This document shows, piece after piece, positions 25,676 to 41,394 of a stretch of DNA of 60,000 nucleotides. Source of the stretch: Schmidtea polychroa. Taxonomy: Eukaryota. The notes under the pieces were generated by a model. It ran no database searches. It had not been told where the DNA came from and saw nothing but the letters and a program-made list of their open reading frames with translations. The number at the start of each line of letters is the position of its first letter. Positions within the stretch are counted from its first letter, which is position 1. Made by a program: the position numbers and the translations under genes. The stretch spans positions 19,594,001-19,654,000 of the forward strand of contig CM097885.1 of the NCBI GenBank assembly GCA_044892525.1. The letters run 5' to 3'.

Positions 25676-26689
25676 ATTTAGATCTAGGAAAGTTAAATAT
25701 TAATAAATTGGAGAGGTATACAAAAAGCCTCGCATATCATACAATGCGTAAGACACCGAGGTTTAGAATCTATAAAGATTCACATAATGATATAAGGAGT
25801 CAAACTTATATTAGTCATATAGAGAATGTTAAAACCAATCTTTCAAAATATGGACCTTTATTTCTTGAACGAATAGAAGCTTATTACATACTATCACTGT
25901 TTACCTTTGATATGTTTGGTGTTATTAATAAATGTTCTAGTAGGATTTGGTTTCCAGATATTGAGCGTTCTTTTTGATTAAACAACAAGAAACACAACAA
26001 TTAGTAAGTTGATTTTCTTTAATATAACAAATTCACTGGATCAGCCATTATCCACACTCTTAAATGAATTGGGTTAGTTTTCCAACATTAAATTACTCAC
26101 GTAACACTTCGAACGGTTGATGACTTGGTGAAACCAACAATGTCTCGTCCGAGACTTCTGTAATTTTACTGGTTTCGCTATAAATCCTCTCTAATTTTTG
26201 GCTTCTCGCTATTTTTCATTATCCGTTTTATTTTTGTCCCTGTTTTTTTATCATGCATGTAGTAGGCAAGTCAATTATTTACTAGGATTTGAGCAGTGAA
26301 TTACCAATCTAAATTAGCATTCATTTTTTAAACTTTGATCTAATAACGAAAATATTTACCGATCTCTACAAAGATTATATATTTGGATAATATTTGACAT
26401 TTTCGTGTTTCATTAGAAAAAAATAAAGGATTTTAAAAATGTATTTTTAAAATATTTTTCCGGTATAAAATGGGATTCATCTTATCGCTGGAGTCATTTT
26501 ATATTCTAGCTAATACGGTAACTATTTAATTAGTTTATATTTTAATTTTTAGGCCACTGGGTTTGTGTCGATGTTAGTAGATGGATTGGGCACCGCTGGC
26601 ACAGGACACCGCTAGCACAGTACCCCCCTCCCCCCTCCCCCCGTCGGTAAGATTTTCAAAAATATTCTAAGTCTAAAAGTACATTTTTT

Positions 26690-27215
26690 TTCAAGGTCAA
26701 ATTTAAACAAAGACATATGACTCATCAAGGTCATTGAAACAAAGACCATGACTCATAGTATGACTCATCAAATTTTTCAAGGGCATTTAAACAAAGACCA
26801 TGACTCATCATATGACTCATCAAGGTCATTTTCAAGGTCATATGACTCATACTAAGACTCATCAAGGTCAAAAAAATTTCTCAAGGTCATTTTAACAAAG
26901 ACCGTGACTCATCAAGGTCATTTTCAAGGTCATATGACTCATACTATGACTCATCAAGGTCATTGAAACAAAGGCCATGACTCATGATATGACTCATCAA
27001 GGTCATTCTCAAGGTCATATGACTCATAATATGACTCATCAAGGTCATTCTCAAGGTCATATGACTCATCCGATGACTCATCAAAATTTTCAAGGTCATT
27101 TTCAAGGTCATCTGAGTCATCCTATGACTCATCAAGGCCATTTTCAAGGTCACATGACTAATCCAAGGTCATTCCCAAGGTCATATGAGTCATCGCGATG
27201 ACTCATCAAGGTCAT
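26690..27215 (+). repeat. TGACTCA / TCAAGGTCA minisatellite, left arm (mirror at ~39530-40060)
   Basis: Dense irregular array of ATGACTCAT and TCAAGGTCA words. Confidence 0.95.
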
Positions 27216-27349
27216 ATTATTATTTTTAAAAAATATTATTAAGTGTGCTAGCGGTGCCCTACTATTTGGCATGCCAAAAGTTATCGTTCCCATCATTTTA
27301 TTTCATCGTTCGATAGCTTGTTTTGAAGCTTGGTGCAAGACCTTTCGAA

Positions 27350-36520: not shown

Positions 36521-38629
36521 CAGTAATAAATTTCTTAATAACTAAATTACTTTTGTTTTTACATTTATAAAAATTGAGATAGCCAATCAAATTAGAGTTT
36601 TCAAAATGTAGAAATTGTAACCATGGTTGAACCTTCAAATGTCTAAATAACATCATATTGTATAACAATAATAATAAGCATGACTAGTACCCTTGCAACC
36701 TGTTGAGTGTGAGCAGTACCCATAGGGGGACAAAATATTTTGTCGGATAGACTAGGAGTATATATAATAATAATAATAAAAATAATAATATACTTTAAAA
36801 TAAATAATAAGAAAATAATTTTGAAAATGATAATAATAATATTTTATAAATAAACTAAGAATTTTGAAGAAAATAATGATGAAAATATTGAAAATCGTGA
36901 AAATTATGAAAATGTTGAAAATTATTAAAATATTCAAGGAAATGATGAAAATGTTGAAAATCATGAAAACGTTGAAAATTATGAAAATGTTCCTGAAAAT
37001 ATTAAAAATGTTGAAAATGATGAAAATATTGAAAAGGATGAAAACGTTAAACATTATGAAAATGTTCCCTAAAATAATCATCAAATATTGAAAATCGTAA
37101 ATTGATGCAGAAAATAAGTTTTATGAATATTTAAGTAAATAATAATAAAACATCGAAAATAAAATAATAAGAACTTTGCAAATAATAATAATAATAATAA
37201 TATTGATAAAAACTTTGAAAATAATTTGAAAATAATTCTTTGAAAATAATACTTTGAAAAATATTCGATGAATAGTTCCTGAAATAATCATGAAAATGTT
37301 GAAAATCGTGAAAATATTGAAAATGTAGAAAATTGTTAAAATTCATGCAAATGATGAAAATATTGAAAATCATGTAATTGACGTAGAAAATAAGTTTTAT
37401 GAATATTTAAGTAAATAATAATAATGAAACTTCTAAATTAATATAATAATTAGAACTTTGCAAATAATAATAAAAATAATAATAATAATAAAAAATAATA
37501 ATAATAATTCTTTGAAAATAATTCTTTGAAAATAATTCTTTGAAAATAATAATGAAAAAATAATAATCATGAAAATGTTGAAAATCGTGAAAATGTTGAA
37601 AATCGTGAAAATTATGAAATTGACGTAGAAATTAAGTTTCATGAATATTTGCAATAATAATCATAATAATAATAATAATAATAATAATAATAATAATAAT
37701 AATAATAATAATAATAATAATAATAATAATAATAATAATAATAAGAACTTTGATAAACTGAACGGAAATATTACTTTGAAAAATATTTGATGAAAATGTT
37801 CATGTAACTAATTAAAATGTTCCTGAAATAATAATGAAAATACTGAAAATGGAAAAAATTATGAAAATATTAAAAATTATTAAAATATGCAAATGATGAA
37901 AATGTTGAAAATCATGAAATTGACGTAGAAATTAAGTTTTATGAAGATTTGCAATAATAATCATAATAATAATAATAATAATAATAATAATAATAATAAT
38001 AATAATAATAATAATAATAATAATAATAATAATATTAATAATAATAATAATAAAATTAATAATTGTAATCTTCCGCGCGGGCGTTCTTTCCCAATAATAA
38101 TGATAAATTAAATTATTACGTAATCGATAATTAAACCAAAAAAAAATATTATCATAAAATCAACAATTTAAACAAAATTAAATTATTACGTAATTGATAA
38201 TTAAAACAAAAAAAATTATTATATATTTAACCATTTAAACAATATTAAATTATTAAGTAATCGATAATTAAAACAAAAATAAAAATATTATCATAAAATC
38301 AACAATTTAAAAAAATAAAATTATTACATAATTAATAATTAAAACAAAAAAAATATTATTATATAATTAACGATTTAAACAATATTAAATTATTAAGTAA
38401 TCGATAATTAAAACAAAAACAAAATATTATCATTTAATCAACAATTTAAAAAAATAAAATTATTACATAATTAATAATTAAAACAAAAAAAATATTATTA
38501 TATAATTAACGATTTAAACAAAATTTAATTATTACATAATTTACAATTAAAAGAAAAAATAAAAATATTATTGTATAATCAACGATTTAAACAAAATTAA
38601 ATTATTAAATAATCGATAATTAAAACAAA

Positions 38630-39015
38630 AATAATATGACCTTGAAAATAATAATATGACCTTGAAATTAATAATATTTTGAAAAATAATAATATTTTGA
38701 AAAATAATAATATGACCTTGAAAATAATAATATTTTGAAAAATAATAATATAACCTTGAAAGTAATAATATTTTGAAAAATAATAATATGACCTTGAAAA
38801 TAATAATATTTTGAAAAATAATAATATGACCTTGAAAATAATAATATTTTGAAAAATAATAATATGACCTTGAAAATAATAATATTTTGAAAAATAATAA
38901 TATGACCTTGAAAATAATAATATTTTGAAAAATAATAATATGACCTTGAAAATAATAATATTTTGAAAAATAATAATATGACCTTGAAAATAATAATATT
39001 TTGAAAAATAATAAT
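38630..39015 (-). repeat. 38-bp tandem repeat, about 10 copies (right arm)
   Basis: Reverse complement of the 27686-28870 unit, as a much shorter array. Confidence 0.95.
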
Positions 39016-41394
39016 ATAATAATCGAATAATAATAAAATAATCGAATGCGAGTTATTGAGCGTGAGCAGTACCCTTGTGAGCATTACCCATAGGGGGACA
39101 GAATATTTTTGTCGGATAGACTCGGAGTATATAGATTAATACTAATAATAATAATAATAATAATAATAATAATAATAATAATAATAATAATAATAATAAT
39201 AATAATAATAATAATAATAATAATAATAATAATAATAATAATAATAATAATAATAATAATAATAATAATAATAATAATAATAACAATAATAATAATAATA
39301 ATAATATAATAATAATAATAATAATAATAATACTAATAATAATAATAATAATAACAATAACAATAAATTCGAAAGGTCTTGCACCAAGCTTCAAAACAAG
39401 CTATCGAACGATGAAATAAAATGATGGGAACGATAACTTTTGGCATGCCAAATAGTAGGGCACCGCTAGCACACTTAATAATATTTTGAAAAAATAATAA
39501 TAAAAATAATAATATTTTTTAAAAATAATAATATGACCTTGATGAGTCATCGCGATGACTCATATGACCTTGGGAATGACCTTGGATTAGTCATGTGACC
39601 TTGAAAATGGCCTTGATGAGCCATAGGATGACTCAGATGGCCTTGAAAATGACCTTGAAAATTTTGATGAGTCATCGGATGAGTCATATGACCTTGAGAA
39701 TGACCTTGATGAGTCATATTATGAGTCATATGACCTTGAGATGACCTTGATGAGTCATATCATGAGTCATGGCCTTTGTTTCAATGACCTTGATGAGTCA
39801 TAGTATGAGTCATATGACCTTGAAAATGACCTTGATGAGTCACGGTCTTTGTTTAAATGACCTTGAGAAAATTTTTTTGACCTTGATGAGTCTTAGTATG
39901 AGTCATATGACCTTGAAAATGACCTTGATGAGTCATATGATGAGTCATGGTCTTTGTTTAAATGACCTTGAAAAATTTGATGAGTCATACTATGAGTCAT
40001 GGTCTTTGTTTCAATGACCTTGATGAGTCATATGTCTTTGTTTAAATTTGACCTTGAAAAAAAATGTACTTTTAGACTTAGAATATTTTTGAAAATCTTA
40101 CCGACGGGGGGAGGGGGGAGGGGGGGGGGTACTGTGCTAGCGGTGCCCTGTGCCAGCGGTGCCCAATCCATCTACTGATGTTAAATTCTAACTGGATTAA
40201 GAAGTTTTTGAGGCTCAGGTATTTTTGTATATAGAATAATGATTTCGGGCTTTTTAACTAGATTTTGGCTATCGCTTAAAAACAGGGTTTTATATAAATT
40301 TGAAATTCTAACTATAGTAAGGGGTGTTTTGAAACTCAGATATTATTATACAGTAATTATAGTCTGAAGCTTTTCAATTCGCAAAGAAGGGTTTGTAGCA
40401 TATTTGGTCATGGACTGTTTGAATAATTAAATTTAGGGTAATATATTTGACAATTAGCAAATCAACATTGTGTATAAATTCACCTAAGTAACATATTTTG
40501 AATAATTATAAGTTGTTTACTTTGTTGTACTTTTTTATTGCATAAAGATAGTTTGCTATCATAATATTTTGATCAGAATCTACTAACCACTATTGAATAT
40601 ACATAAGCTAAGTGTTAGTCACAGAACTTCTGGTATTAATTGGATCCATTAAAAAATCAATATTTTGAATACAACGTTTTATTATTTAATCACAATAGTA
40701 TTTAAACAAATCACATCATAATTTGTTTGGAGTTTCTATAAAAAACAATTAATGAATAAGTAAGGATTTCAACATACAGACAACATACAATAATAATTTA
40801 ATTTATATTTTAGAATACCTCACAATAAGAGTTTAATTTAAAGCAATTATTTTACTTGCAATTAATTCATCTAAATTTACATATTCACATTTATGTAATT
40901 ATTTACCTGATTTTATTAGACAACCCTTATTACAATTAAATAAAATTGAATAATTATTTCTTTTAAATAATTCATATTTAGGGTGAATATTTACTTGATT
41001 GTTAATGGCTAGAATTTAATGCTCTTTTGTTATCCATTTTGCTCACTAAATACCTTTTCATGATATTTATTGGCAATGTTTTGAATAAATTTATTTTAAA
41101 TATTTATTTGTACTTGTTATTTTACAAAGATTTTCTGTATTTGAATTCAAGAATGAAGAATTTTACTAATCATTATCAAATTATTGGAACATCTCACAAG
41201 AAATGATGTCCTTAAGTTCAATCAATCACTATAATTTCTATTAATTCTTTCATCAATGAGTATCATCTTCGTAAGTATATATTTGAATACTGAACTCTTT
41301 CTTTATTTATTTTATTCAAAAATGAACCAGAATTTCAATCTCAACAAATTTTATCAAAGATCTATCAAATTTATTTAGTGATTCACTCTTAACA

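Follow-up and report, generated by a model that had tools for sequence, protein, structure and literature searches.

A largely palindromic 13.6-kb element with Maverick-type ends and a doubled RING-finger reading frame in Schmidtea polychroa

A 60,000-nucleotide stretch of the Schmidtea polychroa genome (assembly GCA_044892525.1, contig CM097885.1, positions 19,594,001 to 19,654,000; hereafter the window) contains an element at 26570..40182, with the target-site duplications (TSDs) of 6 bp included, that is mostly inverted repeat. Its two arms make up 80.7% of 13,601 bp, its ends and TSD are of the Maverick/Polinton type, and each arm carries the same open reading frame (ORF) for a RING-finger protein. 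We lean towards reading it as a non-autonomous Maverick derivative that was inserted by the integrase of a helper element and in which one arm was lengthened by copying from end to end while the helper replicated by strand displacement. The evidence comes from the ends and TSD, from a step in the identity of the arms, and from contigs of public sequencing runs that run from the left arm into the spacer.

Ends, target site and arms

Self-comparison of the window places AGTAG at 26576 and CTACT at 40176, each end abutting a copy of GATGTT (26570-26575 and 40177-40182). The two copies are in direct orientation and the flanking DNA of the two sides is unrelated; at the flank composition a 6-bp match has a chance of ~9e-4, a figure that concerns one insertion only. 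These termini and the exact TSD had been described in a first-pass annotation of the same DNA, as had the arm lengths, the spacer length and an inverted-repeat share of about 80%, and self-comparison recovers them all. The ends match five of the six letters of the (AGT)2 motif and, with the 6-bp TSD, are of the vertebrate Maverick type. Vertebrate Mavericks are described as having (AGT)2, (AG)3 or similar ends, 6-bp TSDs and terminal inverted repeats (TIRs) of 46-1,447 bp (PMC8097293). The principal parts of the element are:

26570..26575, + strand: left TSD, 6 bp (from the sequence)
26576..32503, + strand: left arm, 5,928 bp, which likely served as the template and runs on into the spacer in other samples (self-comparison; contig 32262-32772 of public run X9)
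30524..32503, + strand: inner 1,980 bp, equal to 35134-37113 reversed with no differences; likely the youngest arm extension
32504..35133, no strand: spacer of 2,630 bp, without an intact ORF or an identified gene and present in high copy in public runs
35134..40176, − strand: right arm, 5,043 bp; inner junction 35133/35134 putatively derived (from contig bridging of the left junction)
40177..40182, + strand: right TSD, 6 bp (from the sequence)

Arm identity and the direction of copying

Aligned over 13 segments, the arms differ by 26 substitutions, all of which lie in the outer ~3.9 kb; the inner, gene-bearing 1,980 bp contains none. The right arm also carries additions of 15 bp and ~30 bp relative to the left (two short duplications). 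Among non-array bases, 9 of 1,624 differ in the outer part and 0 of 1,980 in the inner part, and the probability that all nine miss the inner part is ~8e-4, with the inner/outer boundary picked after the data were seen. The first-pass annotation took the near-identical arms and the TSD together as signs of recent mobilisation. The identity of the arms dates the last arm copying, not the insertion, so that what remains for recent mobilisation is the intact TSD and the multi-copy lineage.

Contigs from four public sequencing runs (X1, X2, X5 and X9, from three studies; X1 may be the window's own sample) were placed on 30900-35133, a span in the interior of the element. The runs contributed 58,644, 8,741, 10,197 and 1,174 contigs, respectively, in identity classes from >99% to <90%, and all 30 of 30 bins were covered in each. 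In all four runs the RING gene region, like the spacer, is present as a high-copy repeat, although contig depth yields no copy number. The spacer, previously called unique, is so within this element but not in the genome. At seven tallied sites (30990-31719) the window's letter accounts for 11-26% of depth in X1, 4-27% in X2, 0-27% in X5 and 0% in X9; across all 10 tallied sites X9 has none of this copy's letters.

A contig of X9 (32262-32772) nonetheless crosses the junction between left arm and spacer. Since X9 bridges the left junction while showing not one of this copy's letters at the 10 tallied sites, the right junction (35133/35134) is likely the newer of the two. Deletion joints cross the left junction in X1 (31908-32540) and X2 (32338-32701) as well. 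The native order in the family would be left arm, RING ORF, spacer. Since both arms share letters found in a minority of run depth, the arms appear to have been equalised after the lineage diverged, and the inner right arm would have been copied from the left after that divergence. The stepped arm identity and the bridged left junction in X9 together support the earlier proposal that the arm grew inward over a gene. Four backward joints (31764-31656, 32839-32324, 33135-32583 and 34740-34506), seen among the 12 of 219 rows listed, where the kind of joint is not given, would be alternative arm boundaries provided that they change strand. Summed contig depth at 32503 has no 2:1 step (0.94, 0.86 and 0.97); such depth cannot rank parts and is not counted as evidence.

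Could the arms be partly a product of assembly, through a fold-back read or a right arm taken from another copy of the high-copy family? We consider this quite improbable. The identity of the inner 1,980 bp, the very high copy number of the family and the absence of the right junction from the joints listed would all suit it, but the TSD is direct, the flanks are unrelated, and 26 substitutions, array lengths and short duplications separate the arms. If two different insertions had been joined, moreover, a 6-bp match would be expected in ~1 in 1,100 cases. The first-pass annotation had likewise argued against a simple fold-back from arm-specific substitutions and repeat numbers, and the substitutions and the unequal array unit counts bear it out.

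Search for Maverick genes and relatives

As first annotated, the element contains no ORF for the Maverick machinery. We found no ORF or remnant of pPolB or integrase and no ORF for an ATPase, a protease or a major or minor capsid protein; the RING ORF is the only one of at least 150 amino acids (aa) outside the repeats. In a Pfam scan that read through stops, 12 frames covering the spacer and 31754-32505 matched nothing better than E 0.069, and a PHROG scan of six spacer frames gave no match. One spacer frame had 0 matches among 1.84 billion representatives, and for a second frame 0 of 503 candidates were confirmed. In a codon score over 300-base segments, three RING segments lie above the 99th shuffle percentile. 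None of the segments wholly in the spacer exceeds the 95th (best -0.28 vs -0.26); 34800-35099 reached -0.23. A past of the spacer as a decayed Maverick gene is accordingly not supported: the Pfam, PHROG and representative scans are empty and the codon score is not clearly apart from shuffles. Rfam gave 0 matches. Within the spacer, 33035-33089 and 33457-33510 form a 55-bp direct repeat (85% alike).

Searches for relatives by pattern were also empty. Viral contigs gave 0 matches each for the terminal, cassette and sub-terminal patterns, and metagenome contigs gave 0 for the terminal pattern. A 17-base terminal word occurs at 10 viral loci of 53-69% GC, where no match extends past 24 bases, and was rejected as chance. 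Elsewhere in the window, a lone terminus at 5958-6071 is 76% alike to the element end and is preceded by CTAATT (0 of 100 shuffles reach three matches). It is flanked on both sides by copies of a 227-bp segment (5714-5939 and 6072-6297, 98% alike) and is probably a remnant of a related subfamily.

The arms (5,928 and 5,043 bp) exceed the range of Maverick TIRs, which run from tens of bases to ~1.5-2 kb. An alternative is a foldback-type non-autonomous cut-and-paste element (Galileo/FB-like, IS3EU or GingerRoot) that is Maverick-like at its ends only; we regard this as improbable. Foldback elements are described as typically having long arms that are internally repetitive and differ from each other in array length (PMC3573991), and the arms here, with their unequal arrays, have this form, which is a structural likeness and not a family marker. 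The lack of any Maverick gene or fragment inside the element would also fit. However, Galileo, a member of the P superfamily, is described with a 7-bp TSD (PMC3573991), against 6 bp here. IS3EU and GingerRoot have a 6-bp TSD but are described with TA..TA or TG..CA termini (PMC10045372), whereas the termini here are AG..CT, and AGTAG with 6 bp suits Mavericks. The element does not qualify as an autonomous Maverick, nor, without a partner element, as a proven derivative.

Proposed origin of the arms

Mavericks are proposed to replicate with a protein-primed polymerase through a paired-end intermediate; we know of no direct demonstration of this model. In the reading towards which we lean, a helper Maverick's integrase would have made the 6-bp TSD. 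In this lineage an inverted copy of the left end would have taken the place of the DNA to the right of 35133. The replacement would have taken two steps or more, and the last of them would have carried the arm across the RING ORF to 32503. Most likely the copying would have occurred off the chromosome: the helper's protein-primed polymerase would have displaced a strand whose two ends paired, and that strand would have been filled in on the other arm. Alternatively, the polymerase may have switched templates off the chromosome; both routes would leave two identical origins.

Several points weigh against this account. The Maverick assignment is based on a single insertion. Neither spacer nor RING ORF is tied to a Maverick by homology in the Pfam, PHROG and representative scans, and the viral and metagenome contig scans with the terminal, cassette and sub-terminal patterns and the RING protein found no relative. 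The right junction (a joint of 35133 to 32503) is not among the 15 of 311 joints listed. The step in arm identity is itself sensitive to counting: with five outer substitutions instead of nine the probability becomes 0.02, and as the outer substitutions lie mostly in repetitive blocks, faster mutation there may mimic a step without any difference in age. Finally, the off-chromosome copying step is a proposal, and Galileo is described as extending its TIRs without a protein-primed polymerase (PMC3573991).

This last point bears on the main rival, a Maverick-type passenger in which host repair, acting between the two TIRs by gene conversion or break-induced copying, lengthened the arm within the chromosome and the polymerase played no part in making the palindrome. 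We judge it unlikely, if a good deal less so than the other rivals considered here. The recruitment of internal sequence into Galileo TIRs has been ascribed to recombination and break repair (PMC3573991), long palindromes with microsatellites favour breaks, and the array unit numbers are unequal between the arms. On the other side, the residue-changing letters shared by the arms are not confined to a single locus but reach up to ~1/4 of X1 depth. This suits a lineage that had spread once the change was made, though it does not show a common arm boundary for those copies.

A broader form of the polymerase-based reading can be put forward tentatively. Mavericks in this genome may yield integrated 'copy-back' defective genomes, in which the helper polymerase would rebuild one end again and again from the other, at variable inner points, and the resulting near-perfect palindromes are replicated and reinserted as satellites. 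The present copy, with its doubled gene and decaying core, would be an intermediate stage before a gene-less state. If so, nested arm boundaries would be a fossil record of a protein-primed Maverick replication cycle that has never been observed.

The RING-finger ORF

Both copies of the ORF are open over 163 codons:

31262..31753, + strand: 163-aa ORF with a C-terminal IAP-type RING finger and no BIR match (PF13920, E 3.4e-7)
35884..36375, − strand: second copy of the RING ORF, identical

Among solved structures the RINGs of IAP proteins (cIAP1, cIAP2 and XIAP) are nearest, over residues 113-155 (E 2.5e-7), and like them the RING here is C-terminal. Unlike IAP proteins, the ORF has no BIR domain (Pfam gives RING families only, and matches to the PDB are confined to the RING region), and its N-terminal 110 residues match no family. 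It is also one zinc ligand short: the zinc-binding histidine is absent at codon 133 in both arms, which leaves the full C3HC4 set of eight ligands incomplete. The relatives of the ORF form one database cluster of five unnamed proteins (P0001-P0005), 89-95% identical, and all five keep the histidine. The best ESM Atlas match to the protein scores 0.82, over the RING part only, and its AlphaFold model (mean pLDDT, the predicted local distance difference test, of 44) was not used for a fold search. In metagenome contigs 0 of 76 candidates for the protein were confirmed, and in viral contigs 0 of 6.

Because the histidine is missing here and kept by all five relatives, the ORF makes a poor case for working cargo. 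Relative to the public runs, six of eight well-supported differences in the ORF change a residue (the eight being those well supported among 40 of the 256 difference rows listed), and P0001 sides with the runs in all six. Other copies in the runs have deletions inside the ORF, with joints that skip 473, 71 and 35 bases. The ORF has the look of a passenger that is decaying in this lineage, and is likely one that the lineage does not need. The first-pass annotation had called the element a non-autonomous cargo carrier; 'non-autonomous' is supported, whereas 'cargo' sits poorly with a damaged ORF whose private differences are mostly residue-changing.

We regard as very improbable the alternative of a selected cargo carrier, in which the doubled RING gene benefits the element or the host as a ubiquitin ligase or IAP-like modulator. 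In its favour, the ORF is open in both arms behind a repeated TATA-like cassette, its relatives keep the full RING motif, and nematode Mavericks are described as carrying cargo genes (10.1101/2022.07.12.499685). The missing zinc ligand, the predominance of residue-changing differences and the deletions in other copies all speak against it.

Cassettes, arrays and termini

Six TATA-like cassettes lie in 27584-39133, and every one is oriented toward the element centre. Four of them are:

27584..27646, + strand: cassette A, with a TATA-like word, a short palindrome and an ATG
30870..30934, + strand: cassette B, 5′ of the RING ORF, ~92% alike to A
32806..32877, + strand: cassette C, a diverged copy pointing to the centre
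34881..34968, − strand: cassette D, a diverged copy pointing to the centre; 50 bp of it are 84% alike to C

The cassettes are candidate promoters. Read-through transcripts from them would form a hairpin whose perfect stem measures 2 kb and which might give rise to small RNA. By eye, the ATG of cassette B could enter the RING frame through a phase-keeping GT-AG intron of ~277 bases (30913-31213), with a poor donor match. An origin of the cassette as a relic of the terminus was rejected (895, 389 and 968 of 1,000 shuffles reach the alignment scores). At 34971, the cassette D region passes into a TAA tract in 60 contigs of X1, just as cassette A does in this element. Either other copies begin their right arm at this point, or contigs from cassettes A and B cross-map.

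From the end inward, the arm holds the terminus, a word block, an end-like relic, (TTA)77, cassette A, the arrays, a low-complexity block, cassette B and the RING ORF; 750 bp of non-coding DNA separate the RING ORF from the inner end of the left arm. The remaining features of the left arm are:

26576..26690, + strand: terminal 115 bp, with the AGTAG end, two 16-bp units and a C-rich tract; GC-richer
26691..27228, + strand: sub-terminal block of ~540 bp with recurrent TGA(C/G)TCA and TCAAGGTCA words
27244..27264, − strand: internal end-like relic, AGTAG fused directly to a single 16-bp terminal unit; no TSD adjoining
27351..27580, + strand: (TTA)77 microsatellite; mirror at 39137-39366
27685..28872, + strand: 38-bp tandem array, 31.2 units; 10.2 units in the right arm (38630-39017)
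28868..29493, + strand: 139-bp tandem array, 4.4 units; 3.8 units in the right arm (38107-38637)
29574..30873, + strand: low-complexity block that holds ATT tracts and repeats of 9/18 bp

TGA(C/G)TCA occurs 19 times and TCAAGGTCA 17 times in 26690-27230, and the element holds 74 of the 80 and 72 of the 74 matches, respectively, in the whole window. We take these words to be AP-1-like and nuclear-receptor-like as candidate labels. The end-like relic also occurs at 39454-39474; relic and true end delimit a 690-bp mini-module without a TSD.

Genomic neighbourhood

The window is AT-rich DNA of animal type with three intronless ORFs resembling retinol-binding-protein receptors, a hAT transposase, and mariner and long terminal repeat (LTR) fragments. 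The STRA6-like (PF14752) intronless ORFs cluster in mixed orientation (7230-9161, 41395-43356, 49434-51401 and about 59066-60000), and the element lies ~1.2 kb from the stop of one of them. An open 883-aa hAT transposase ORF with DUF4371 and a dimerisation domain occupies 20794-23445. Fragments of another repeat, in inverted order and 83-98% alike, lie at 15044-15897 and 24291-26117 and end ~450 bp left of the insertion site.

Comparison with known systems

Palindromic defective phi29 genomes and adenovirus panhandle repair offer mechanistic parallels to the reading that we prefer: in both, one end is inverted and duplicated during protein-primed strand-displacement replication. Those forms are free viral or in vitro molecules, whereas the present one is integrated with a TSD.

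Intact Mavericks are described as 12.7-24.6 kb long with eight core genes (Barreat and Katzourakis 2021, PMC8097293). The element shares with them an AGT-type end motif, the 6-bp TSD and a length within that range, and differs in lacking all eight core genes, in having arms 5-6 kb long and in a sixth end base off (AGT)2. Butterfly polintons are described with ~2-kb TIRs that bear genes (hexon and adenain) and with related insertions that lack polB (bioRxiv 10.1101/2025.02.07.637071). Kilobase TIRs that duplicate genes, and polB-less relatives, are common to both cases, but the duplicated genes there are core genes and most of the machinery is kept, whereas here the element is machinery-free and the arms make up 81%. 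In Streptomyces, whose linear chromosomes are capped by terminal proteins, arm replacement is described as lengthening the TIRs (PMC5869714). There too, one end of a capped linear DNA is swapped for a copy of the other; the differences are that the DNA is a bacterial chromosome, the scale is hundreds of kb and the route is homologous recombination between duplicated genes.

The 'extended TIR' of Galileo, in which non-autonomous copies recruit internal sequence into TIRs of up to ~1.26 kb (PMC3573991), is likewise non-autonomous and mostly TIR, with recruited internal sequence and arm-specific tandem-repeat numbers. Besides its superfamily and TSD, Galileo differs in its shorter TIRs and cut-and-paste movement. 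If host repair made the arms described here, they would be a fivefold scaled-up case of what Galileo shows, a less surprising outcome.

We found no report of a Maverick-ended element that is ~80% palindrome, in a literature search that took in few subscription papers and not Repbase. TIR extension, gene-bearing polinton TIRs, Maverick cargo and the lengthening of TIRs by arm replacement are already in print, as far as the sources cited above describe them. To these systems the present copy adds a doubled, damaged gene and a stepped arm, which preserve a record of the way in which palindromes of this kind may grow. The gene, with its lineage-specific changes present in both arms, provides a datable marker, and a high-copy passenger family in which arms are extended and re-equalised step by step would make the replication model testable from the arm boundaries, arm divergence and TSDs of many copies.

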